From: Leucoraja erinacea
Taxonomy: Eukaryota
Reading direction: 5' to 3'
NCBI RefSeq assembly: GCF_028641065.1
Contig: NC_073407.1
Coordinates: 20,956,001 to 21,020,000, forward strand
DNA: 64,000 bases
Shown here: one piece after another, positions 1 through 57,300 of the stretch
How positions within the stretch are numbered: the first letter of the stretch is position 1
Layout of the letters: each line of letters begins with the position of its first letter
The notes under the pieces: generated by a model
Told to the model about the DNA's origin: nothing
What the model saw: the letters and a program-made list of their open reading frames with translations, nothing else
Database searches by the model: none
Made by a program: the position numbers and the translations under genes

Positions 1-117
1 GGTTCCGGCTCAACCTTCAGCTCCTCCCCAACACATCCAAAAAAAACTCAGTACAAAGCTATAATCTTTGGTGCAAAGCAAAGATCCACTATAAGATCTT
101 CGACTCAGAGGTGCAAA

Positions 118-153
118 CCAAAGATCCTATAGCAGGTCTTATAGGATCGTTGG
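118..153. mobile_element. 36-bp hairpin micro-element with 6-bp TSD (same family as 43250)
   Basis: ccaaagatcctatagcaggtcttataggatcgttgg, flanked by tgcaaa (112-117 and 154-159); degenerate partial copies at 59-71 and 78-102. Confidence 0.7.
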
Positions 154-12231: not shown

Positions 12232-24788
<12,557 letters not shown>

Positions 24789-25831
24789 GCAGCTCCCAAT
24801 TTCTGACTGAACAGAGAAGCTATTTGTATACTCCAGGTTTCTGGTAGTAGTTTATCTGTGAGCTGCTTCTGTTGAGTGAGGAGTGACTGTATGTAAATAG
24901 AGGGGAAATGGGCTTTGTTATGTGATCTGATTGATTTTATATTAAGGGTGCTGAAAATCCGTTTTAAAATAACAGCTGTGATTACTTTGTTCTGTGATGC
25001 TGCTATAGTTTGTCTACTCCTGGACTGTGGTCATTCTATCACTGCACAACGGATGTCACGTCCTGCAATATCAGTCTTTGATCTTTGACGCAAGGCGCAT
25101 TTGGCTTCATCTGTATTCCCTTCCCGGGTTTCTGCTCCAAGTTGGGAAAAAGTACATAGAAAGCTGGACAACCACTTGCCCATGCCTCCCACTGCATGCT
25201 CTTCCCTTTCTCCCATACTCCATAATCCTCACTCCACCTCTGGCCACTTGCTACGTACAAGTGTTCCTCCCCTATATCAGCCACCTCTGGTTGATCTATT
25301 CCTTTCAGTACTAGAGGCAAGACAATGGGATCTGGGGCTTGCCCATGTTGCTGGTTGGAGAACTTGATCCTTGTTCCTCACATGGGCAAGGTCTAGACAA
25401 CTGATGGAAACAAGAATCAATGACAGGTGCTGCGACAGAACCCCTTTGTGTTTTTGATGTGGTAAGATCAGCGGTTGCTCAATCCTCCTGGAACCAGCAA
25501 CCGAGCTGAGTATTCTTAAAACACTTTCATAGACAAGTCAGCAAAATTATGTCAATGTAGTTAAACTACAAATTTAAGTGTTACAGAATTCAAGTGGGTT
25601 TGTGAGAGGATTGAGATTGCCACTCAGTGGTTCTCTGATGATCCGATGGGAGGATTCAAGCTCATCTCCTTCAGTGGTAGAGGACAGGCTGCATTGAGTG
25701 GCCTCCATTTGTGTGTCTCCTCTACTCTGTCCCTGCTGGCGTCTTGCCGCTGGGTGACCACTGAGCACAGTCTAGCCCTAAGGATGCTTTAAACGGTTGT
25801 TCATTTTTACAAACACACCCAGTGAAGCTCA

Positions 25832-25958
25832 AAGGTAGGCAAAAGTGCTGGTGAAACTCAGCGGGTGCAGCAGCATCTTTAGATGCTGCTGCACCCGCTG
25901 AGTTTCACCAGCACTTTTGTCTACCTTCGATTTTCCAGCATCTGCAGTTCCTTCTTAA
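25832..25958. mobile_element. Palindromic pLTR-derived insertion with ~15-bp TSD
   Basis: Inverted arms, flanked by acccagtgaagctca (25817-25831) and acccagtgtagctca (25959-25973). Confidence 0.8.
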
Positions 25959-27103: not shown

Positions 27104-30100
27104 CTGAAGGAGTAAAGCAGACAAGTTGAACACACTCTGAAATATTTCTGCTGCACATTTCCTAATATCCAATTTAGCTTAATACAGAACCAGTGCAAGT
27201 TCTTTATTTTTGCCCCCATTTTGGATAGTTTCACACTATAGTCCTTAGACTCTGTGTTTATCAAGGACTCAGTAAAGAAAGATGTGTGGACGTTGAACAG
27301 AAAAGAGAGCTGTCCTACAGGACCAGAAAAACATTTAGCATGGCAGGGGAGCAGAAATAAAAACAATGTCTCACTTGTCTTTTCCGGGTCGAATCTTTAC
27401 TTGATAGAAGCAGTAGACAGGTCTGTGGTCCGAGGTTTTGATAGAGCTGCAGGAGCCATACTTAACCACAAGAATGTCATCTTTATGCCGATTCTTGTAA
27501 ATGATTCTGTCCTGGAAGATGAGGAGAATAAGTTGCCTTTTGTTTCGATCCTCCCTCTGGTTCATTTGTAGTGATAGGAGCAGAATTAGGCCATTGGAAG
27601 GTAGACTGGAGATCCTTTCCTCACCCCCACCCACTGCTTGTTGTGTGTGCATGTTACAACCACATTCCCTACATTACAACTCTGACCGAGATTCAAAGGG
27701 ACACTTTTGCTGTGAAACACAATCCTTTCAGTTCTAGAGTTCAGACTTTAGAAGACTTATCGAAGCATCTGCAGTTCCCTCACAAACCCAAATGTTCATA
27801 AGTTCTACGGGCAGAAATGGGATTGAGAGGGACAGATAGATCAGCCACGATTGAATGGCGTTGATAGGCAATCGTGGCTGGTCTATCTGTCCCTCTCAAG
27901 CCTATTCTACTGCCTTCTCCCCTTAACTTCTGACACCTTTTGAATTTTCTTGTTTTCAAACTTAGGTAGAGTTCCATTAAAAAAAAAAATGCTACCATCC
28001 TTTCAGACTTCTAATGGATGATCATAACAGCTGCATTAAAAATGTCTTATCCTCCCTCTGGTTCATTTAATACAACTCTTAAACATGCCTCTTCTGGTTA
28101 TTAACTATCCTCCCCAGTGGGAAGTATTCCTAATTTTATCCAAGCTTAAACTGTTGATTTATGAGAACCTCAGATCCATTACCTTTGAATGTTTTCTGCT
28201 TCAAGAACAATTTTAGCTTTGTGCAGGGGCTCAGCTAATCAGAAGAATAAACGAGCGGGAAGACAGGTTAAAGAAGGGACAGCCACAGCCAGAGATTCTC
28301 ACAGAAATAAAACAAACTCCTTCCACTGATTCCTTACCGTGTAAGAGGGAGTCCTTTTCTTGGAACTACTGTCGTATACATCACATCCAACGTCAAATTT
28401 GTAGGTGGGTGGAAAACATATTTCAGCTTCTTTGAAGCCTTTGAAAACAGACCCTGAGGAATAAGGAAAGATCAGTGAGCTTTAATGATGTTTTCAACTT
28501 GGTACATAGGATGTGAACTGAAAAGTGCTACTGTCACATCATCAGCGAGCACATTCCCTCACTGCATACACCACAGACGGGCGAGGTTCCAATTACTAAT
28601 TGCTCTGAACTTTATACTGTAGTGAATTAGTGCCCATGGAACATATCACACTGAGTTTGTGCAAAGGAAACAAGTACTCTTAGAGAGTCAGTGCTCTGTC
28701 ACCTGCACCCCATCAGGTCTAGATGCCTTAAAATCCACAGCCTAGATGGGCCCTCACCCTGCTGCCCACCCCAAGTTGATGGAAGGTTGACAATTCATCC
28801 TACCCTCCTGTAGTTTCCTGGTTAACTCGTCATAGTGTAAAATGGAGCAGAGGTTTTCCTGGCTGTTGCTGTCCAGGAGCTCGTCGATCACTGCTCGCTT
28901 CACATCCAGCCGAAAGTTGAAGTCACCAAACCAGAAAACATTGTCAAACCGAGAGGTCACATCATCTACAGGAATGGGGAAATAAAAAAGAGAAAATGCT
29001 TTACTCCTAGTTATATCAAATTATGAAACTGTCGCAGGCCATGTCAGCCTGGTTCAGTGGCAACACACCAGATGTTCACCTGTACACTGCAACGCTCACA
29101 GGGCCTTGTTATTAATGGACTCTGGCGGGAAGCTTCAAGGACATGGAGGGCTTTAGATGTGAGGGGTGGACTGAGAAGGTAGGTCTTTTAGTTACGAAGT
29201 AACTCACATTGAAGCTTTTTATCTGCACTGGATCATGAGCTCATTATATAAGGTCATAAGTGATAGGAGCAGAATTAGGCCATTCAGCCCTTCAAGTCTA
29301 CTCCACCATTCAATCCCTCCTAACCCCATTCTCCTGCCTTATACCTATAACCTCTTGACACCCGTACTAATCAAGAATCTTTCTCTCTGCCTTAATAATA
29401 TCCATTGATTTGGCCTCCACAGATTCGCCACCCTCTGAAGAAAGACATTTCTCCTCATCTCCTTCCTAAAGGAACGTCCTTGTTGGAGTCAGGCCCTGCG
29501 GCCCAACTACCATTAAGCACTAGAAAAATGGAATGTGCTGGCAGAACTCAGCAGGTCAGGCAGCATCTGTGGATGAAATAGACAGGTGCCGTTTCAGGGG
29601 ACCTCCGATCAGTCTGCTGAAACACATATCCATTCCCCCCACAGATGCTGCCTGACCTGAGTTCCTCCAGCACTTTTTGTTTTGTTGAAGATTCCACACC
29701 TGCAGTTCTTTTAATATCAATTTATAACTAAGTTTACTCTAATGCCATTTTATTCTCCCCACACTTCTATCGACTCTCCTCCAGACTTGGCACCCACCTA
29801 AATGTTAGAGGAGATTTATAGTGATCAATTGACTTACCAAACTGCACATTTTTGAGATGTGGATGGGAACTGGAACACCCAGAGGAAACAACTTTCAAAC
29901 TCCACATAGACAGCATTGTAGGTCAGGATTGAACCCAGGTCACCAAGTTTTGAAGTTGGAGCACTGCTAACTCCGCTGTTATGCCACCCCATTGTTCTAT
30001 ATAACATCTCCCATCAGATAACACCAGAACTGAGAGAGTATATACGTCAAGGAGGGCTCGACCCGAAACGTCACCCATTCCTTCTCTCCAGAGATGCTGC

Positions 30101-33100: not shown

Positions 33101-36100
33101 TTGATTGGCTTGGTATAAATGTAAACCGTCCCTAGTGTGCGGCCGAAGGGCCTGTTTCCTAAACTTATCTCAAAACTAATCGTAATTTTAAGCACCCATT
33201 GTACTCTGCTTTAAAATGTTGTTGACGAAGGAACTGTCTTTCAGTTCTCAGCACTCACCTGAACAGAACCAGATGAGGTCTCTCCTGATGAACACGGATA
33301 GTTGCAGCACTCCATGTGATGCTGAGCACAGCAATACAAAGTAAGGCCCCAAGATCATCTGCAGGCGGATCTCCCACTCTCTCCTTTGCAAAGGGGGGTG
33401 GGGGAAGGGGAGGGAATGAAATTAGGTCATTCAAGGCATGATCCTGGAAGGTGTCTGCTAAGACATTAAAAAAAATACAGAAACGTGGCTGTTAACACCA
33501 CCCCTGGGTCTATCGGACGACCCACTCCAGAGACCCATTCTCTCTTGGAATAGAATCCTGAGTTTGAACACCCTTTTCCATCCCATGATCAGAATCTGCC
33601 TAAATAGTTGGTCTCAGGCCATGGAGGGAGAGCAATTAACTAGTACCTTCAGGGTTGAAGGTAGTCTAGACAAGACAAAGAGAGCACCTGTGTTCAAGAA
33701 GGAACTGCAGATGCTGGAAGATCGAAGGTACACAAAAATGCTGGAGAAACTCAGCGGGTGCAGCAGCATCTATGGAGCGAAGGAAATAGGCGACGTTTCG
33801 GGCCAAAACCCTTCTTCAGACTGATGGGGGGTGGGGGGGGAGAAGGAAGGAAAAAGGAAGGGGAGAAGGAAGGAAAAAGGGAGGAGGAGGAGCCCGAGGG
33901 CGGGGGGGATGGGAGGAGACAACTCGAGGGTTAAGGAAGGGGAGGAGACAGCAAGGGCTAGCAAAACTGGGAGAATTTGAAACTGGAAAAATCAGAGCAC
34001 CTGATTTGATGCTGCACCAGTTTGGGATGAGAGAAGTATATTTTGGGACATTTTTTTTTTTTTTGGAGGGGTTTGGAGGCAAGGGGAGGGTACAAGAGGA
34101 ACTGATTGAGAACCTGCAAGACACTGGATAATGCCGTGATATTCTGCTGCTATTACTTGTCTGGGATTCCTTCCTGAGTACCGATGACATACAGGTCATG
34201 TATGGATTGAGAGTCGGAGGGCAGCAGCAGATCCTCCAGTGAATCCGGAAACTCCTGGGAAAGAGTGGAAACAGCACCGGTTAGAACAGGCTTGCTTCCA
34301 TCCACCGTGATCGGCGGGAAGAAGAAAAACCTTTCGTTAGCACAGTGCAATGATTTTACCTTCAGACATCCCAAAAGTACTTTGCAGGGAGTTAAATATT
34401 ATTTTACTTAGATTCATCCAGCATGGAAACAGGCCCTTCTGCCCACATTGCCCATGCCGACTAAAACGGCCAATCCAAACTGGTCCCATTTACAGCCAGC
34501 TACCCTATATCCCTTTAAATCTTTATGAAGGAACTGCAGATGCTGGAAAATCGAAGGTAGACAAAAGTGCTGGAGAAACTCAGCGGTTGCAGCAGCATCT
34601 ATGGAGCGAAGGAAACAGGCAACGTTTCAGGCCGAAACCTTGCTTGTTTCCTTCACTCCATAGATGCTGCTGCACCCGCTGAGTTTCTCCAGCACTTTTG
34701 TCTACCTCCCTATAAATCTTTCCTATCTAAACCTTTTCTAGTGCTTATTTTATTATTTAATGTGTGCATATGCTCTCCATCTGGTAGAGGTGGCACTGAA
34801 ATGCATTCAGGACCAGATCTCCAACTGGTTTACTTATTCCTGATTATAACGGGCAGCTGTGACCAAGTTGCTCGGCTCTTAACACATGGCAATTTAAATG
34901 GCTTGTCCACATAAAGCAGAGAGATCACGCTGGGCGTACCAAACCTAAACATAAAAGAGGCCAGGTGACTTGGTATTGATGCTGCTATTCTATATTCCTC
35001 TTCATGGAGGTTTTGTCTTTGTTCTGTTTCCTATGGTTAGTTGCTCACCTTCTTGCCTTGCGTGTTCCAGGTGGCAATATACACTTGTATCATTTTGTTA
35101 GGAAAATAACGCTGCAATTCACTGGCTCCCAAAAGTGATCCGCCGGCCAGGAGATTACTGTCCATGTAACTCCTGTCGAGACACAGAGGCAGATGTTACA
35201 GTGCAGGCATGGTATAACAGTCACTAGAACTCGCTATGTTCTTAGCTAGCAGTCTTTTCTGCACACCATTTGCCCTGCCATATCATTATCTTCATCTACC
35301 TTACACTTTGATCCCAGAGCAGTGCAGTCTATCAGTTGCATCGTGCCTTTCTTCTGCGACTGTGTATAAAGCCCAAACATAGAAAAAGGCATGGAGGCAA
35401 CGAATGAAAAGCTCTACGTTGTGGCGGACCTGGAACTCGTTGAGGTGAGGGCGGAGGGGAATGAAGGAGAGGCCTCTGTTGAGGACAGACCATTCCGTAT
35501 CAGAAAGGGGGCGTCAGGGGAGGATAGTGAAGACACGACAAGAGTGGGGGTTGGGGTCAGAGGAGGGCGGGAGCGAGATCTGTTGGGGGGGGGGGGGGGG
35601 ATGGTGGGTTGGTTTTCAGAGGAGCGGGGCGTGTGGGGGGGGGGTGTAGTCGTAACGTAACTGGTTAAAAAGGGGGGAAGAGGAAGACCCCATCACTACT
35701 GAGGTTCCCTGTAGGAGGGGGAGGGGGGGGAGCAATAGGGCCCAGCAAAGTCAGGCCACGTGGTGCTGGAGTCTGCATTGTGGAGGCTGTGAGCCTGGAA
35801 CTCTGGCGAGGCCCGCTGGTGGGCGGCCTCAGTGGCCCCGGGGAGACGGTGAGAGTCGGCAACCGCGGCAGTTTCGGTGGTCCGGGCCTGGGTTCGGCCG
35901 GGAAGGCGGTGAAGGTCAGAGAGGCGGTGGATGTTGGTGCCGCTCCTTGTGGTGGCAATCTCGGCCTCGTGGCTTGTCGGCCAGTCCAGCGGTGGAGCCC
36001 CAGGAGCGGGCGGTCGAGTCGAGGAGTGTCGGTGGAGGGAGTGGTCTGGAGGCGGGCAAGCGTGATCCTTGGCAGAGTCGAGGTTAGCGAGGAAGCGTTT

Positions 36101-39100: not shown

Positions 39101-39671
39101 TAGCAGTGTTGCAGTCCTCTGCCCAGGTGGATAAACCTAGGTCTTGGGAACTCAAGTCGCTGCAGCGTGACGCAAGCCTCCAAGGTGAGAATGTAACCAA
39201 TGAAGCTAAAGTGGACACCTTGAATTCTACAGACAATTTGCAGGGGATTTAATGCAAAATAATTTGCAAACTTGCCCACCTTAGTTGTGAAGATATTCGT
39301 ACCTGCTCCGAAGATCCTCTGAAAGGATGGGAACCATGACACTGCTTGAAGAAGTCATGGAAATAGAGGATTGACTGTCCTCGGTGCCTTGAGATGGGCT
39401 AAGAAAATGGTTTTGCTGGTGTGACTGCACCTTCCCAGCTGCTTGAATGTAATCCACATAATCCAGGTCGATGCGATTACTGGTCCTTAGTGCTGACGAC
39501 TCTATATTTACAGCAATGGGAGGGAGCAGCTTGGTGTGCACCACTGGGGGCAGCTTCCTCCTGCCCGATGGCACTGGTTTATCAATGGCAGGTCCTTTGG
39601 GCTCCAGGTGGGGAGGGCTGTTCCAGAACTCTGTCATGCTGACGGCTGATCTGCGGATCTCACAATCTCGC

Positions 39672-39703
<32 letters not shown>

Positions 39704-40114
39704 ACCTCGAGACAAGAGCATCTGGGAAGCCGCTGCAGACCTCCTCTTGAGACCCAGCAAGGGGGAGCCCGAGAAATCTCCGTAGTGGGAGCCGCACGAT
39801 GAGTCGGTGTCGACTGGTTCCGAAGAGCTCTCCTGGCTGCTCCTGACCTTTGCTCTCCGGTTGACCTTCATGCTCTCCAGCGAGTGCAGGCGGAGCAGCC
39901 GGCTCTGCCGCGGAGGCTTCGGTTTCACCGGTGGTCGTGGGATTAAAGGCACCTCCAGTCCTTGCACCCCATGGCCCAACTCTTCCGAAGGGTATATCGC
40001 AGTGTCACCAAGGAATGGGGTGGATCCCTCCATGTCCTCTGGACAAACTCTGCTGTCCAACTCAGCGATCAGGTTTGAGGTGCCGTGCACCAGCAGTTCC
40101 ATCTGGTCACTCAT
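26974..40114 (-). CDS. INPP5E: Inositol polyphosphate 5-phosphatase E (ciliary type IV 5-phosphatase), 10 coding exons, ~643 aa
   Basis: Exons (minus): 39303-40114, 35049-35172, 34157-34254, 33259-33383, 31793-31912, 30852-30959, 28804-28965, 28338-28453, 27375-27511, 26974-27103 (1932 nt, open frame). 5-phosphatase motifs [24 protein letters not shown] and SDHRPV; FDRDIYI resembling the ciliary-targeting motif; C-terminal CaaX CSVS. Confidence 0.96.
27375..27511 (-). CDS. INPP5E: INPP5E exon (DRIIYK...SDHRPVY...RPGKD)
   Basis: GT-AG boundaries, 137 nt. Confidence 0.95.
28338..28453 (-). CDS. INPP5E: INPP5E exon ([20 protein letters not shown]...RTPSYT)
   Basis: GT-AG boundaries, 116 nt. 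Confidence 0.96.
28804..28965 (-). CDS. INPP5E: INPP5E exon ([19 protein letters not shown]...)
   Basis: GT-AG boundaries, 162 nt, catalytic motif. Confidence 0.96.
30852..30959 (-). CDS. INPP5E: INPP5E exon ([12 protein letters not shown]...YRSNP)
   Basis: GT-AG boundaries, 108 nt. Confidence 0.93.
31793..31912 (-). CDS. INPP5E: INPP5E exon ([21 protein letters not shown]...SHFT)
   Basis: GT-AG boundaries, 120 nt. Confidence 0.95.
32942..33160 (+). mobile_element. HE1-like SINE copy, internally deleted
   Basis: ggcatggtgacacagcgg...gggttcgatcc...ggccgaagggcctgtttcc. Confidence 0.75.
33259..33383 (-). CDS. INPP5E: INPP5E exon ([18 protein letters not shown]...[10 protein letters not shown])
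   Basis: GT-AG boundaries, 125 nt. Confidence 0.94.
33694..33980 (-). mobile_element. Penelope-like pseudo-LTR copy with a hammerhead-like core
   Basis: Same family as the terminal region at 44250-44443; contains CTGAAGAAGGGTTTTGGCCCGAAACGTC (33792-33819, minus). Confidence 0.75.
34157..34254 (-). CDS. INPP5E: INPP5E exon ([12 protein letters not shown]...[10 protein letters not shown])
   Basis: GT-AG boundaries, 98 nt. Confidence 0.94.
34525..34706. mobile_element. Palindromic pLTR-derived insertion with ~15-bp TSD, nested in a CR1 tail
   Basis: Flanked by tccctttaaatcttt (34510-34524) and tccctataaatcttt (34707-34721). Confidence 0.8.
35049..35172 (-). CDS. INPP5E: INPP5E exon ([15 protein letters not shown]...[10 protein letters not shown])
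   Basis: GT-AG boundaries, 124 nt, TWN motif. Confidence 0.93.
35385..36225 (-). mobile_element. Penelope-like element, 5' ORF remnant
   Basis: Degenerate minus-strand translation [17 protein letters not shown]...[26 protein letters not shown] resembles the N-terminal part of Penelope ORFs; GC-rich, with stops and frameshifts. Confidence 0.65.
36553..37725 (-). mobile_element. CR1-type LINE fragments (rearranged), nested in an older plus-strand CR1 (~36420-36547 and ~38056-38400)
   Basis: ORFs 36639..37022, 37147..37491 and 37539..37730 translate as CR1 ORF2 C-terminal segments ([31 protein letters not shown]). Confidence 0.88.
37746..38053 (-). mobile_element. HE1-like SINE copy
   Basis: Reverse complement of the 20601 family (ggatcgaaccc B-box, ccactgtgcc 5' end). 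Confidence 0.8.
39303..40114 (-). CDS. INPP5E: INPP5E coding exon 1 (Pro/Ser-rich N-terminus)
   Basis: Within ORF 39281..40147; AAAATGA start, GCAG|GTACGA donor, phase 2. Exon probably begins at the acceptor at 40362. Confidence 0.85.
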
Positions 40115-42717
40115 TTTCACATAACAGTGAGACTTTCTACCAAGCAAAGTGTGTGCAGTTGGGAACCACCTGATATTAATGCCTCTCCCAGGTTAGAAAA
40201 ACACTTAGAGGTGCTCTGTTCCCACCGTCTGTGATCCTCTGTGCAGACTGCCACATCCTATGATTTGTGTGGAGGGACCAGGCGAGATCAACAGCTTAAA
40301 CAGGTGCAGTAGTGGAGTCCTGATTGGTTTCCAGAGGTTCCAGGGACGCCACACAACAGCACCTAACGTAAAACAAACAGAACTGAGGACATTTGGAATG
40401 AATGGTATTACATTTATTTATGTAATGTCTTTAAAAAAAGACCTTCTAACTCAGAAGTGAGAGCAATGAACCCCAACTTCCATTTTGGTGATGGGCAAAG
40501 GATCCCAGGACATTTCGCAGAGGGAACACATGCCCATTGCTTGTGCAAATAAACGTGAAGAATGGGCATTAGATCAATAATGTAGATTTGATCGAGAGAA
40601 ATTTTAATCTTTGTAAGTATAAAAATCAGAAACCGAGTCAAGAATGGACAAAAGATATAGCAAGCAGATTCAGTTAAATCTCCCAAAAGCGACCTTGGCG
40701 GATGAAACTCAGTGTTCTGTCACCAGTTGGTGCTGGTCGCGTGTAATACTGTGCTCCACCTTCTGTTGCCATCCACTGGGAGAGTGTAACCAAGGGCTTC
40801 CCTCCTCTCACCTCACCAAATGGCCCAACCCACGGTCTCACTGTACAAGTGTGCGTAGCGGTGCCACTTCCAACTCCCAGACGCACCTTTCTCGCGTCGG
40901 TCCAGCATCGCCGGAGTAGACATGAATGAATGATTTCACGAGGAGGCGCCCATCTGGGTGGGTTATTATGTATTGCCATGAAAGTCACCAGTGTGCCCTG
41001 TTTCTCGGGTGAACCGTTTCAGGATCTGTTGAGGAAAAAAACAACTAGAAAGTGTGCAGAGCAAAGTGACTGGGGGCGAGGGACTTCAATGTGAAAACAT
41101 GAAAGAACCTGGAAATGTTCACCTTGGCACAAAGGAGGGAAAAGACCGTTGAAAAAGAGGTGTTCAAAATCATGAAGGGGTTTGACAGGGTAAATAAGGA
41201 GGAGCAACTTCCATTGGTAGGAGAGTTACGAGTCAGAAAGTAGAAGAGGGGATTCAGTTATCATCTTATGGCACTGCCTGTAAGCCTGGTGGTACCACAT
41301 TCAGATGGATACTTGTGGGGAACAATTTGCAGGACATGGCAGAGCAGAGGGTTGTAGGGAAAACTGGATAACTGGCACGAGCCATAATGGGCTGAATCAC
41401 TTCCTTCCTTGCTATCATTAGAATTTTTAGAAAAAAACATTTATAGATAAAACTGCCATTTACACAGGACTTTTCACAATATCCACATTCCATATGTACG
41501 TTTTATTTCCAATTTCAGGTAACTCACAGCCCCTGTGTCCTGTTCTCTCTTCCCATCCACCCTGATCCTTTCACGCACATCTGGTCCTTCCCAGCTCCCT
41601 ATTACTCCATTTATTTCCCATCCTCCACACCCACTTCATCTGACAATCACCCACACACCCCTCCCACCCTGCATAATGAAAGATGAAAATAGTTGACCAA
41701 AAGCTTGCTCTAAAATCTGAATGCAGAGAGATTTGGAAAGGAACTTCCAGAACTCGGGGTTAGGAACATGGAAAGCCCATTGTGGAGCATATAAAACTGG
41801 GGACATGCATAAACTGGGTAACAGAGGTAATATCAGAGCTTCAGTCAGATCTCATATCCTCAAGTCTCTCTATCTTGAGTTGCTTAAGAGGCGAGAGGCA
41901 CTTTTTTGGCATATGCTTTTGCCTTCAGGCTTGGTGCAACATTTAATATATTCTTGTACATGGGAAAGAATGAGTCACTGAAAGCCTTTGAAGACTAAAT
42001 AATTCTGTAACAACTGTGTCCCCGGGAACCAGATTTGATCAACAAACACAGTAGTATTGAGTGATAAGGAGCTGGTATGAGTTGGGGTATAGGCACCCAA
42101 GTTTTGGATGAGCTGAGGGTGGATGATTAGAGCCTAACCAGGAGACAGACTTGGACCCATTTCAGTTCTATACGCCTCAGGGCTACATCAGCTTAGCGAT
42201 TTATCGTCAAGAAATCAGGCTTGGTCCTATTTACATGTGACCTCCTCAAACTCCCCCTCACCTGCATCTACCCGAGACCTCCCTTAACCTGCATCCACAA
42301 CAGACCTCCCTCACCTGTATCTACCGCAGATCTCCCCCTTATTCACCTCAAATCCCTTCTCACCCGCCACATTCCAGACGCTGTCCCGCCCCCGCCTCTT
42401 TTCCAGCTTTCTCTTCCCTACTACATTCAGTCTGAAGAGGGGTCCCGACCCGAACAGTCGCCTATGTCTGTCAGTCAGTCTGTCTGCCTATCCCCACACC
42501 ACAGACGCTGCCTGACCCGCTTGACTCCACCGCTCTCTCTCCTGCGGCTGCCCAGGCTGGTGTCATGTCCCCCGCGGAGGGAGGCTGGCCTCAGCCCCGG
42601 GAGAAGTGCGTCGCCTTGCGGCAGTAGCTGAGGGAGTGAGGGAGGGAGGGTTGGGAGCAGCCGGAGAGGGGGAGCGGGACTCGACCGACGGGTAAACACT
42701 TTAATCCGCGCTTCCCA

Positions 42718-43230
42718 CCCCACCTACCTCACTCACACACACACACTCCGGCCCCGCTCCCCCACCTACCTCACTCACTCACACGCCGGCCCAGCTCCCC
42801 GCGCTGCCTCCCTCACTCACACTCCGGCCCCGCTCCCCCACCTACCTCACTCACTCACTCACACACACTCCGGCCCCGCTCCCCCACCTACCTCACTCAC
42901 TCACTCACACACACAGAGTGATGCTCTCTCTCACTCACTCACACACAGAGTGATGCTCACCTACCTCACTCACTCACTCACACACACTCCGGCCCCGCTC
43001 CCCCACCTACCTCACTCACTCACTCACACTCCGGCCCCCGCTCCCCCACCTACCTCACTCACTCTCACACACACACTCCGGCCCCGCTCCCGCGCTGCCT
43101 CCCTCACACACACACGCCGGCCCCGCTCCCCCACCTACCTCACTCACTCACTCACACACACTCCGGCCCCGCTCCCCCACCTACCTCACCCACTCACTCA
43201 CACTCCGGCCCCGCTCCCCGCGCTGCCTCT
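42718..43230. repeat. Minisatellite (~45-bp variable unit ccccacctacctcactcactcac(ac)nactccggccccgct) at the CpG-rich 5' end of INPP5E
   Basis: About ten degenerate units are visible directly in the sequence. Confidence 0.9.
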
Positions 43231-43249
43231 CCGCTCCCGACAGTCGGAG

Positions 43250-43284
43250 CCAAAGATCTTATAGCGGAGCTCTAAGATCTTTGG
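43250..43284. mobile_element. 35-bp hairpin micro-element with 6-bp TSD
   Basis: ccaaagatcttatagc-gga-gctctaagatctttgg, flanked by tcggag (43244-43249 and 43285-43290). Confidence 0.75.
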
Positions 43285-43689
43285 TCGGAGCCATGAAACA
43301 AGCTGCGGCCCCTAGCAACACGGTGCGGCGCGGGGCATGGCGGGCACGTGGAGGACCGGCCCGGAGGACAGCGGCGCTCGGTGGCTGCGTGGTGCATTCC
43401 GGGATACTGGAGGACCCAGGGCAGCCCAGGGCGGTCAGTCAAGTCAAGTTTATTTGTCACATACACATACGAGATGTGCAGTGAAATGAAAGTGGCAATG
43501 CTCGCGGACTTTTGTGCAAAAGACAAACAACAAAACAACCAAACAAATTATAAACACAATCATAACACACATATTCTTTTATTCTGTTATTTTTGAGGTT
43601 TATCAGTGAGAATCTGGAGCAAAGAGCCCCTCTATAATCTTTGATCTGGAGTGTGAAGAGGGGGCTCCACCCGAAACATTCCTTTCCAC

Positions 43690-48303: not shown

Positions 48304-51300
48304 CTGGAAATCAGAGGTCAAAGTATCAGTTAGTAACAGAAGCATAGAAATGGATTATGCTGTTAAACAGTTCTGTCAAGTGCAGCTTTTCCAGGGCAGA
48401 AACATCACTGATCCAAAGCAGAATACACTTCCTTACTGACCCATCAAATACTGCTAAGCAAGTTCTTCTTTTGTTTGACCTCTCCCACACCGTCCCAAAT
48501 AACCCAGGGCAATACTTTGTAGAACTACCTTTTGCTGCAATTACAGCTGCAAGTCTTTTGGGGTATGTCTCTACCAGCTTTGCACATCTAGAGACTGCAA
48601 TTTTTGCCCATTCTTCTTTGCAAAATAGCTCAAGCTCAGTCAGATTGGATGGAGAGCGTCTGTGAACAGCAGTTTTCAAGTCTTGCCAGAGATTCTCAAC
48701 TGGATTTAGGTCTGGACTTTGACTGGGCCATTCAAACACATGAATATGCTTTGATCTAAACCATTCCATTGTCGCTCTGGCTGTATGTTTAGGGTCATTG
48801 TCCTGCTGGAAGGTGAACCTCCACCCCAGTCTCAAGTCTTTTGCAGACTCCAACAGGTTTTCTTCCAAGATTGCCCTGTATTTGGCTCCATCCATCTTCC
48901 CATCAACTCTGACCAGCTTCTCTGTCCCTGCTGAAGAAAAGCATCCCCACAGCATGATGCTGCCACCACGTTTCACAGTGGGGATGGTGTGTTCAGGGTG
49001 ATGTGCAGTGTTAGTTTTCCGCCACACATAGCGTTTTGCATTTAGGCCAAAAAGTTCAATTTTGGTCTCATCTGACCAGAGCACCTTCCTCCACATGTTT
49101 GCTGTGTCCCCCACATGGCTTGTGGCAAACTGCAAACGGGACTTCTTATGGCTTTTTTTTTTCCCCCAACAGTGGCTTTCTTCTTGCCACTCTTCCATAA
49201 AGGCCCGATTTGTGGAGTGCACGACTAATAGTTGTCCTGTGGACAGATTTTCCCACCTGAGCTGTGGATCTCTGCAGCTCCTCCAGAGTTACCATGGGCC
49301 TCTTGGCTGCTTCTCTGATCAATGCTCTCCTTGCCCGGCCTGTCAGTTTAGGTGGACGGCCATGTCTTGGTAGGTTTGCAGTTGTGCCATACTCTTTCCA
49401 TTTTCGGATGATGGATTGAACAGTGCTCCGTGAGATGTTCAAAGCTTGGGATATTTTTTTATAACCTAACCCTACTTTAAACTTCTCCACAACTTTATCC
49501 CTGATCTGTCTGGTGTGTTCCTTGGGAACGTATAATTTTCCTTCCACTTCACAATTATGCACCACTTTGTGTTGGTCTGTCACATAAAATCCCAATAAAA
49601 TACATTTACGTTTGTGGTTGTAACGTGACAAAATGTGGAAAAGTTCAAGGGGTATGAATACTTTTGCAAGCCACTGTAAATGCATTTTGGACTGCATGCG
49701 CAGAAATCCCAGAAGTCCCAGAAGATAAAACATAGCAAAGGAACCTTTGGCCCACAGTGTCTGCGCCAACCATGATGCCAAGTTAATCTCTTCTGCCTGC
49801 AGGCAATCCATTTCCAACATTTCCATATGCCTGTCTAAAGGTCTTGTCAGTTAAATAAGAGTCGTAAGACCCAGTATAATTACATTTGTTGAAACTTGGA
49901 AGAGTAGATTGCCACTTCAGCTCTGCCTAAAGGAAGTTAGGCAACACTAAATACAGTGTGTGCACAGTCCAGGAGTGTTGTGACAACACTAGAGAGGAGA
50001 AAGGTTTTTATCAGATGTGGCAAAGGCTGGAGAATTTTAATTGCAGGGCTGGACTAGCTAGGTCTTTTCATTGGAACATGAGGCAGAGCAATGATTTAGA
50101 GTCAAAGTCAGTCCCATTTGCCCACGTTTGGCCGATATCCCTCTAAGCCCTACTGAGGCGGATAAGATCATGAAAGACCTGGAAAGGATAGATAGAGGGA
50201 AAGCAGCAGGGGGCAACAACACATGGTAATCGTTTAACTATTAAAGAAACAACAGGGTTTTTCCTCTCCACATCTCACTCCCACCCGGAATATGGCATTC
50301 CTTGAAACACAGAATGCTTTTAAAATATAGTTCATGAGTTGTGGCTGAAAAATGTGAAAGGGCTGGATGGCTTTTTTGGCCATGATGGGGTGATGGCTTC
50401 CTTTGTAGTAACTTCTACAATTCAAAGCACAGCTCTCTTGGAATTGAACATTAAATATTGGCAATGGAATATTTTACAGGTCTAAAACACTTGCTCATCG
50501 TTATACCAACATTACCAAGATTTAAACCATTGTCTAAAGCAGAACTTATATTAACTCAAATCAAACTACTTACTTGGGCAAACTGAGCAGGGTTGTAAAA
50601 TTGAACAGTTCCTTGTGCAGAGCCTCCTTGTGCAGGAGGAGGGACCTGCAAAACAGATCAACATTAAACAGGTTGCATCATGGCAAAGAAAGGCATTATT
50701 ACAGCATTTCGCACAGCCTCTACACCATGAAGTGGTGTACACCATAGAGCCATTCTTCTGCAGTTGTATAGGGCTCTGGTAAGACCACATCTGGAGTATT
50801 GCAAACAGTTTTGGTCTAATTTGAGGAAGGACACCCTTGTGATTGAAGCAGTGCAGCGTAGGTTCACGAGATTGATCCCTGGGATGGCGGGACTGTCATG
50901 AGGAAAGGTTGAAAAGACTAGGCTTGTATTCACTGGAGTTTAGAAGGAATGTGGAATTCCCTGCCACAGAGGGAAGTGGAGGCCAAATCACTGGATGGAT
51001 TTAAGAGAGAGTTAGAGCTCTCGAGGCAGGTGGAATCAAGGGATATGGGGAGAAGGTAGGCACGGGTTATTGATAGGGGACGATTAGCCATGATCGCCAT
51101 GAATGAAGGTGCTGGATCGAAGGGCCGAATGGCCTCCTCCTGCACCTATTATAACCAATTACGTTTTTTTTGAAGTGTAGTCACTGCTGTATTGGCCGGC
51201 ATGCCGCAGATTGTAATGGTACTAACAGATGGGAAGAAGCATTACAGTGGGTTACACTCATCCAACAAAACCGCCATGGGTTCAAGAACCATTTGAGACA

Positions 51301-54300: not shown

Positions 54301-57300
54301 TGCAGAGTGCCTTCGCGTTGTTTGGAGTCTTTCAAGTCTGAGATGAATGCTGGTTGTTGACTATCAAGAATCCAGGAATATAGAGAAAAAGATGGGCAAA
54401 TGAATTTGAACCACAGATCAAACCAAATCTAACTGAAAGCAAAGCAGTGAACGGCCTTCTCTTCCTCCTGTCTTCCAAAAGAACAGTGACCAAGTGTTCA
54501 TTGTTAGCCCGAGGGCAACCACGGGTTTGGACGTTGGCAGTACATGTATACTGAACCACTGACACTATGATACCATCAGTGGAATTAAGACAGTATCAAA
54601 AAGTCACAATTCTACATAAATGTGGGTTGAGAGTATTTCTGCTATTTAAATGTGAAAGATCCCTTGGCAGAGAATTCTCCTGTATCCTTTTCTCCCCTTT
54701 AGGAGCAGCATACCTACCAATGCTGCTGTCTTAGTTGTCTTAGTCAGGTTGGACCCCGACCTCCACTGTCTGTGTGGCATTTGCACACTCTTCCCGAGAC
54801 CAAGTGGTTTTTCCCCCGAGGGTGCTTCAGTTTCCTCCCAGTTTAAAAATGTGCAGATTGTTAGGTTAATTGGAGCTGTAAATTGCCCCCCCCCCCCAGT
54901 GAGTAGCTGATGGTACAATCTGGGGTGTTGATGGGAAAGCGAGGAGAGTAACATGGTAGGGTAGGATTAGCCTAAATTGGTGTTTGATGGGCAATGTAGA
55001 CTCAGACAGTTTCTTTCTGTGCTGTCTCTACCCACCCTGTCCAAACACAAACCCCTCATCAGGGGCTCCATTTAGACAAAAGTGCCTGCCAGATTTCTTG
55101 CATAGCATCAACAAATACACTTCAAAAGTACTTCATTGGTTAAGTATGTTAGGCATCTGAACAGTATATTTTGTGCAGAAATGGGAGTTAACTAATTCGG
55201 TTTGCCTAAGACAGTGGAAAAGAGTTCCTCGCCCAAAATCTCACCTGCTTTCCTGGAGAATCTGTTGACAGATGGATGGCCACCGAAGGACATTGGATTT
55301 GAACCCGAGGGAAGGCCAGCCATGGGTAGGCTTGGCGGCGGTGGGAGAGGTTTGCTCTGCAAAAATAAAAGTAACAAAGTGTTAATTATTAGCAACCTCC
55401 AACTCGCTTCAAACTCCAAGTGTGGGAAATACTGGTTAAATTAGTTCTCCCATTCTAGGCTGTGCCATATGATTCAACAAATTCACGACTCCTCTGGGAG
55501 CGGATCGGGCATCAGATGTCAGAACCTGAAGCCCTGCCCCCGATACTGCACCGATGGACTTTGGCAGGTCACCGCCATCAAAGGCCTTTTTCAACCGTGT
55601 CCAACAAATCTTAGGACAGATCGCCCTCGAGTAAATAAACTCTGCAGTTTGTGGATAGTGATCGTCAGCAGGATCGACGCTTTCCCATATCCTGCACTCA
55701 ACTACCATCATTAAATGGCAACAAGTGCAGGACCCTGCTTGATTTTCCATTTCCACACTATTTCCTCCCGCAGTGCGAATATTAAAAACTAAATGGCCTG
55801 TCCCACTTGGCCATCATTTGCGCGTCACGCAGATGGCGAGCGAAGATTTTGTACATCACAACATCCTGCGACGCCGCGCGTCACTGCCTATGTCATCACG
55901 CACTATGCGTGCATAAGGCGCACCATGCACGCCTCACGTGCGTGTCATGACAAGCGCTTCGTGACGCGTAAATTATGTCACGTAAATTACTCGCAAGTGA
56001 AGGCCAAGTGGGACAGGCCGTTAAGATTCCTCGGATCATTCATTCATGACACCATCTACATGGTTTGAATATCCATTCACATCACACCATGAGCTGTGGG
56101 AATTCAATTTAAACGGGTATCATAAAGCCCATCTAGATTACTGACAACTGCAGGGAAGATTCCTTGCCATCCTTGCCAGCTGTGAACATATAATTTCAAT
56201 CCAACGCTATTGTGGTTGAAGGAAAGAACTGCAGTTGCTGGTTTAAATCAAAGGTAGACACATAATGCTGGAGTAACTCACTGGGACAGGCATCATCTCT
56301 GGAGAAAAGGAATGGCAACAAGAGCAGGACCCAGCTTGATTTTCCATTTCCCTGGCCCATTGACACACAGTCAAGTGCAAGATCCACTCTCATTCCTCAC
56401 CCATTCCTTCTCTCCGGAGATGCTGCCTGTCCCGGTGAGTTACTCCAGCATTTTGTGTCTACCTTCGATTTAAACCAGCATCTGCAGTTTTTTCCTACAC
56501 ACCATCATGGTTGATTTCTACTTACCTGCTGAAGCTACCATTGAATAAAACTATGAGCAGCATTGCAAGGTAGCAGCAATGCCCACATCACAAAATGGAA
56601 TAAAGGTACTCGGCAGAGTAATTTCTGCACGCTTACCTCTTCCTCTGGTTCATTCATGTTCACCCATCGCTGCCTCTTCTCATCCCACACAATCTAGGCA
56701 TAAGACAGGAGGCAAATAGTTCAGATCTCATGCCCCAACCTAAAGGCTCACTGTAGTACAGGGTAAACAACCCCCCTTGTGTATCTGACACCCAGCAGAC
56801 ATGTTTAGGTGTGGAGAATTCTGCTCAAATACACATGTCCTTGCCCAACTGACAAACATTCGTAGCAAAAAGGAAGTTTTGAGGAAGAACGTAAAACTAC
56901 AATCGACACCATCAAGTAAAAATGATTCAGCAAGTCAAATACCAGTCGAGTGTTCCCTCAGAGAGACCACTCCCATCCTCAAGACCATCTTCTAAGGCAG
57001 TCTTTCTCTCAAGTTAGAAGATGACTTGCTTTCACTGAGGAAGAGAGGCTACTTGTGCGCCATTTCTTATACCTTGCGATAGACATTGCAAACCAGGTGG
57101 CAAGCAGTCTTGAGGGTGAAATCTTGGCCCCATGGCAGGGATGCCCATGATGATAGGAGACAGATGCACAGACTTTGCAAACCTAGTCAGATGGACACAT
57201 ACCAGGTACACACTGGTGCAATCTGGCCATCCACCGAATGCTTATCAACAAACTCTTTCACACATTCCTTTCCTCAATTCCCCTCCATCTCTCTTCTTCC

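Follow-up and report, generated by a model that had tools for sequence, protein, structure and literature searches.

The 33-bp hairpin upstream of INPP5E is very probably the repaired donor site left behind when a transposon of the P superfamily inserted and was later excised, and not a mobile micro-transposon. In the window, i.e. the whole stretch of 64,000 nucleotides that was analysed, the hairpin lies between two copies of an 8-bp target duplication, GTCGGAGC, and its two arms equal the outermost parts of both ends of a transposon of this genome that belongs to the P superfamily. The identity of the ends, the 8-bp duplication, the empty sites in other organisms, the spectrum of lengths and the boundary of retained sequence are the observations on which this reading is built. 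The length of such a scar likely records how deep the enzyme cuts inside its own ends. The features of the window are listed in Table 1.

Table 1. Features of the window related to the excision scar and its surroundings
Feature	Position	Strand	Basis or remark
Left target-site duplication copy GTCGGAGC	43243..43250	.	Sequence; single copy at the empty site of contigs X1 and X3
Scar element, 33 bp	43251..43283		Flanked by the 8-bp target duplication GTCGGAGC
First 20 nt of one P-type element end	43251..43270	+	Same as the first 20 nt of long ends, e.g. L226, L390, L391
Opposite element end, nt 1-15, TTAGAGC variant	43269..43283	-	End-variant counts, paired long elements
GC, 2-nt microhomology common to both arms	43269..43270		Overlap of the two end segments
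Right target-site duplication copy GTCGGAGC	43284..43291	.	Sequence, register, empty-site joint
Second scar, 34 bp	119..152	.	8-bp duplication GTGCAAAC at 111-118 and 153-160
Degenerate compound relic, further end fragments beside the second scar	54..102	.	Flanks ACTCAGTA/ACTCAGAG, 2 mismatches; inner GTGCAAAG
Two INPP5E catalytic-domain exons	27371..29020 (frames 27371-27673, 28754-29020)	-	PF22669, PDB
303-codon open frame, likely first coding exon of INPP5E	39281..40192	-	Position; no family match
CpG-island-like DNA around the scar	43100..43433	.	GC 0.71, CpG o/e 0.80

The hairpin itself is real, as a first-pass annotation of this DNA had it: folded as DNA, it gives z = -5.1 on the plus strand and z = -6.5 on the minus strand, and none of 200 shuffles folded as well on either strand. 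The single mismatch in the stem is not a sign of decay because TTAGAGC is a variant of the element end that is present on 437 long-element ends (genome pattern count). The annotation had described an element of 35 bp with a 6-bp target duplication, in which each border is off by one base. Among 100 flank-unique short copies of the family, drawn from 124 distinct sampled copies and not chosen on duplication, the 8-bp duplication is perfect in 68 and has at most one mismatch in 88, whereas perfect registers of 6, 7 or 9 bp occur in none. An outer C..G, which permits the 35+6 parse, is present in 30 of these 100, a figure obtained with length-specific patterns that does not give a genome-wide rate. 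The family is derived from a transposon, spread through the genome and flanked by true target duplications, as had been claimed, but these measure 8 bp and not 6 bp.

In the targets of 113 elements, both orientations counted, position 2 is T and position 7 is A at a frequency of 0.73 each, while positions 1 and 8 are G or C at roughly 0.83-0.85. The true target preference of the family is S-T-n4-A-S; the G-N6-C preference proposed earlier was an artefact composed of the first and last bases of the 8-bp duplication. A second member of the family with its own duplication had been placed at 118-153. It does belong to the family, but with the bounds and the 8-bp duplication given in Table 1, and it consists, as read by eye, of 17 nt of one end, a 4-nt filler and 13 nt of the other end, with one substitution. 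The fragments in the relic beside it are possibly local re-insertions.

The genome searched (2.19 Gb) contains 38 matches to the profile PF21788. A 773-aa frame (C956) matches PF12017, PF21787, PF21788 and PF21789, all above cut-off, and aligns with the structure of the Drosophila P transposase, PDB 6p5a, at E=1.3e-42. When this alignment is read by eye against the residues named in PMC7776569, the DDE triad D230/D303/E531 is retained and seven of the eight GTP-site residues are identical, K400 being replaced by R. A 37-codon first exon resembles the THAP domain PF05485 below cut-off (E=0.001, 20.2 bits with a cut-off of 23.9, model positions 1-28 of 87). In 2 of the 16 joined regions examined around transposase matches the element is complete, with the same ends, perfect 8-bp duplications, and terminal inverted repeats with CA..TG tips around the transposase gene. 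These copies measure 10,519 bp (C956) and 11,647 bp (C3); the first has 18-nt ends and the second 20-nt ends, and internal scars, found in transposase-bearing copies, are common to both. In the other 14 regions no complete element with duplicated flanks was found around the gene within the DNA examined. The long transposase-encoding relatives that the first-pass annotation had suggested looking for exist, and the superfamily it had been unable to assign is P, since the ends bracket a P-type transposase with perfect 8-bp duplications. As read from the scars by themselves, the parent transposase may perform GTP-dependent, long staggered cleavage. Five frames of the 773-aa type, all on small contigs, differ by 0-28 of 2,319 bases; where there is no difference, this may reflect recent copying or duplication in the assembly. 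Open transposase frames of 772-773 aa are carried by L107, L109, L110, L111, L115 and L116, likewise on small contigs, and three of them share an identical 2,319 nt.

Smaller relatives with the same tips are common. Ends of the long type, CAAAGATCYTATAGCRRAGCAAGATRG, occur 2,410 times in the genome, and the 15-nt tip without the junction of the 33-mer after it has 1,629/1,668 matches. At thirty tip loci that were viewed, MITEs measuring 372-592 bp ended in these tips and occurred together with a series of short forms. Among the long elements listed, 22 with both ends paired, 153-1,488 bp in length, are flanked by 8-bp duplications. The exact two ends of the window scar were found on 2 of the 17 paired long elements with the TTAGAGC variant, L390 (1,134 bp) and L391 (1,205 bp).

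The genome search proposed earlier for the 35-bp pattern yielded 55 forward and 52 reverse exact matches, with 0/0 for a reversed-pattern control, and dropping the outer C from the pattern added 113/101 exact copies with duplications of 8 bp. When exact 11-nt arms are required, a condition that old or very short scars escape, short copies in the range of 22-52 bp number at least 1,818 and those of 53-82 bp, which are mostly compound or filled, 51. Other repeats carry some scars along as passengers and multiply them, such that the genome counts exceed the number of independent events; two passenger families comprise 73 and 47 copies, each at one site within other repeats, and 100 of the 124 sampled copies were flank-unique. 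All samples are the first listed matches of exact-match searches. The lengths peak at 22, 28, 33 and 38 bp: of the asymmetric copies, 308 in number, the first 100 listed include 6, 13, 31 and 20 with these lengths, 70 in all. An enumeration of the microhomology joins of two 20-nt tails predicts, from 22 bp up, lengths of 22, 26, 28, 30, 33 and 38 bp, and the joins that match the peaks use microhomologies of 2-4 nt; in the same enumeration 17-nt tails cannot yield 33 or 38 bp. The predicted lengths of 26 and 30 bp are rare (0 and 1 of 100 listed). The anatomy of an excision footprint is present: both target copies surround the tips of both ends, and the junctions show microhomology, are blunt or are templated.

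Several loci show further changes at such sites. In one passenger family (L287-L316) the 33-bp scar also exists in forms of 42, 44, 46 and 60 bp with a tandem duplication at the apex of the hairpin, which suggests that the scar is unstable after its formation. Different scars occupy the same 8-mer of a high-copy host repeat (L185, L197, L156, L348), an insertion hot spot. At L256, L261, L177 and L143 a scar is followed by one common 8-bp target copy and then by another end of the family, the same target having been hit repeatedly. At L253 (G000:C1:120116041-120116198, 158 bp) a blunt 40-bp scar stands in the place of the right end while the outer duplication is intact, which looks like excision between the end of a nested element and that of its host element. 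Seven end sequences at multiples of about 27 bp form a minisatellite of P ends at G000:C1:49388645-49388924.

The short copies could also be derivatives of full elements of which abortive gap repair, or palindrome-driven deletion, with GC and TATA microhomologies as hot spots, has left only the tips, with no fixed inner cut. Internal deletion of this kind would account for the modal lengths by microhomology without naming a cut, and for the minority of copies in which one side still has some of the inner repeat. It is nevertheless very unlikely, given where the retained sequence stops. The inverted repeat of the parent extends well beyond nt 20, yet in 937 of 981 ends of the 20-nt class the next base leaves the parent, placing the boundary at AGC|AAGAT; 44 ends pass nt 20, of which 25 leave the parent after one A and 19 have AA. 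Some of these 44 keep the inner repeat, which fits partial resynthesis as well as plain internal deletion. The 18-nt class halts at GC in 607 ends versus 16 that continue, and the 19-nt class in 20 versus 3, with one blunt 19+20 join. Most joins cannot place the cut because GC microhomology would trim a longer tail as well; only blunt joins fix the cut point. Blunt GC|GC joins of the 20+20 type occur at 18 loci, with at most one mismatch in the duplication in 14 of the 16 examined, and blunt 18+18 joins at 16 loci, 13 of which have good duplications. A 5-nt microhomology farther in, use of which requires a 25-nt tail, accounts for only 13 joins, whereas a weaker 2-3-nt join within the tail accounts for 83. 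The steep fall in copy number above 52 bp is likewise contrary to internal deletion. Symmetric GCA|TGC or GCAA|TTGC joins were not seen by eye among the listed copies that continue with A, and four 26-mers in the 18-nt class can be read either as 20-nt tails or as 18+8.

The distance from the tip to AAGAT varies among subfamilies and amounts to 18, 19 or 20 nt. From the position of the boundary we infer that the inner cut is fixed by the inner motif AGC^AAGAT; possibly, separate enzymes each have their own ruler. The GCGNAGC mini-hairpin motif, which had been pointed out at the apex, is nothing more than nt 14-20 of the parental end; the GNA loop is present in only 18 of 54 listed 33-mers (hand count). 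As a determinant of the boundary it is unneeded: AGA and AAA loops account for 34 of the 54 (hand count), and the 18-nt class, in which the mini-hairpin cannot form, halts at the same GC.

The excision reading implies the following course of events. A long member of the family, probably a MITE of ~1.1-1.2 kb like L390 and L391, would have inserted at GTCGGAGC. The transposase would then have cut the two strands of each end at different points, one at the tip and one farther in at AGC^AAGAT, so that two 3' tails of 20 nt stayed behind in the chromosome; the tail on the top strand of the donor would be 43251..43270. End joining would have paired the terminal GC of one tail with the GC at positions 14-15 of the other, which gives 20+15-2 = 33 bp; alternative joins of the same tails would produce 22, 24, 28, 38 and 40 bp.

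In the first-pass annotation the hairpin was taken for a mobile, non-autonomous micro-MITE, in which case the 33-mer itself would have moved, e.g. as an extruded cruciform with its two arms as paired ends. The strong hairpin fold, the occurrence of identical 33-mers in numerous unrelated places, every copy within an 8-bp duplication of its own, and the state of the site in relatives are in keeping with this proposal. The empty orthologous sites that had been called for exist: in contigs of the runs X1 (organism A) and X3 (organism B), base 43242 is directly followed by base 43284, a skip of 41 bases (33+8). A loose end of contig X13 (organism D) equals the left flank of the scar, and contig X5 (organism C) breaks at 43284. 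The three informative runs (X1, X3 and X13; X10 has no coverage of the site) are all empty, and a full element at 43243-43291 was found in none of them. The right flank differs between X1 and the window at 1 of 149 bases, and the insertion is therefore recent. Since the 41-base skip is compatible with 33+8 and 35+6 alike, the 8-bp register is taken from the duplications of the genome-wide copies. A full element and a scar at one and the same site were not found as a pair among 139 long and 403 short ends, nor at one passenger site; at 60 loci of two passenger families no full element occupied the scar site, and none of the 8 loci that have no clean far end runs on as a long element.

Movement of the 33-mer itself is highly improbable all the same. 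Of the marks of a MITE, it has the target duplication and empty related sites, but not homogeneity of size: 20 distinct lengths are represented among 100 listed copies, the range runs from 22 to more than 50 bp, and fillers and blunt joins are included. This heterogeneity speaks against transposition of the 33-mer as a cruciform. Reciprocal 33-mers (20+15 and 15+20), 28-mers and 40-mers arise from the same end pair, and these lengths together with the sharp boundary are those of repair products. With inner cuts 20 nt inside each end, moreover, the two strands released from anything no longer than 40 bp would share no overlap, as judged from the P geometry (PMC7776569). The scar would therefore be immobile by itself, the more so because it has no inner repeat.

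It is scarcely credible that the copies are relics of a hAT-type family without kinship to the P transposase. hAT elements produce 8-bp duplications at nTnnnnAn targets, to which the T and A favoured at positions 2 and 7 correspond, but the same ends (CAAAGATC) flank P-type transposase genes with perfect duplications, and hAT excision leaves palindromes of the flanks and is not known to leave element tips.

Beyond the excision reading of the hairpin, we lean, with little more than even confidence, towards a wider interpretation. The family would have a recently active, possibly fully competent P transposase whose inner cut is set by the motif AGC^AAGAT and not by a fixed distance to the tip, leaving tails of 18, 19 or 20 nt according to subfamily. 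The more than 1,800 inherited scars, enriched in CpG islands where full elements are scarce, would then record both the geometry of cleavage and germline end joining.

Excision by staggered cleavage with 3' tails left on the donor is known for the Drosophila P element (PMC7776569, PMC2895639), and the donor junctions in Table 1 of Chan, Yu and McVey 2010 have 17-nt tails (PMC2895639). The fly junctions resemble the scars in their succession of 8-bp duplication, tips up to tail length, microhomology, blunt or templated join, and duplication, and in both 2-nt microhomologies near the tips of the tails are among the commonest joins (PMC2895639). The Drosophila junctions are laboratory events, obtained in repair mutants from one donor with 17-nt tails (PMC2895639), whereas the scars of this vertebrate genome are natural and inherited, number at least 1,818 copies and have tails of 18-20 nt that end at a common inner motif. 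The parent shares with the Drosophila P element the 8-bp duplication, the CA..TG ends, a THAP-like first exon (here below cut-off) and the HTH, RNase H and GTP-binding domains; it differs in the unrelated sequence of the ends and in a probable inner cut at 18-20 nt instead of 17 nt (PMC7776569). In further contrast to the fly element, the elements described here measure 10-12 kb with nested inserts, and their MITEs 0.4-1.5 kb. The inner repeat is contacted by the HTH domain in the fly structure (PMC7776569).

Among vertebrates, zebrafish Pdre2 with zfTHAP9 is a P-like family that also has an 8-bp duplication and internally deleted copies, but its 13-bp inverted repeat is another one and it has about 50 copies (bioRxiv 10.1101/2024.03.22.586318). 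zfTHAP9 showed excision but no transposition in the published assays, and no cut position for it was found there (bioRxiv 10.1101/2024.03.22.586318). The parents of 0.4-1.5 kb are comparable to BuT5 in being P-type MITEs that share their ends with an autonomous element; the scars are unlike BuT5-type MITEs in having no inner ends and heterogeneous lengths, MITE families being homogeneous (PMC3698922). The order and mechanism of P-element strand cleavage were stated to be unknown by Ghanim, Rio and Teixeira 2020 (PMC7776569). No record of natural genome-wide P scars in a vertebrate, of this family or of a longer, probably motif-anchored inner cut was found in the openly available full texts that were searched. 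P excision footprints are already known from the fly laboratory; the natural vertebrate scars and the longer inner cut are apparently new. The 17-nt stagger described in these papers belongs to the fly enzyme (PMC7776569, PMC2895639). For a vertebrate P transposase the scars predict, at the level of the base, a nick at AGC^AAGAT, 18-20 nt in, for which the intact enzyme is a candidate to test. They also form a natural collection of hundreds of repair products that arose independently from a single defined break, and they illustrate that tiny palindromes with target duplications, easily labelled micro-MITEs, can be exit wounds.

The setting of the scar had been described as the putative INPP5E promoter. 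The INPP5E label holds: the frame 28754-29020 matches PF22669 above cut-off and has INPP5E (2xsw, E=1.1e-11) as its best PDB match, the frame 27371-27673 matches PF22669 below cut-off, and no match to this profile was obtained in the other 148 of the 150 window frames scanned (of 378 listed). The scar lies about 3.1 kb upstream of the 303-codon frame. The CpG-island-like DNA around it is likely the promoter or a 5' UTR exon of INPP5E, and the promoter label is plausible on account of these flanks. On the left of the scar a tandem repeat (42600-43240) reads GTGAGT on the minus strand; the scar could thus sit in a 5' UTR exon instead of the promoter. A preference for open promoter DNA, also suggested earlier, agrees with the distribution of the short copies, 25 of 98 of which have island-like flanks versus 12 of 196 distal windows (Fisher p=7e-6), after 12 of 110 short copies that possibly lie inside long family members had been set aside. 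Such flanks were found for none of 60 long ends and for 1 of 35 whole long elements. Insertion that prefers promoters, as described for P (bioRxiv 10.1101/2024.03.22.586318), may explain the enrichment if full elements at these sites were afterwards lost or excised more readily, a step that is conjectural.

Some other features of the window were noted. Just to the right of the CpG-rich stretch, a high-copy repeat occupies 43437-43603; it is lineage-specific because the X3 contig jumps over it and has 35 other letters in its place. At 43311-43319, 28 bp from the scar, lies CCTAGCAAC, which resembles an RFX half-site. A Tc1/mariner-type transposase extends over two frames of the minus strand at 48326-49850 (PF01498, PF25787, PF13358). 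Near-perfect inverted repeats with arms of 55-99 nt are located at 24216-24362, 25824-25935, 34555-34707 and 56217-56499, three of them with loops of 1-5 nt; the pair at 25824 has arms similar to a common interspersed repeat.
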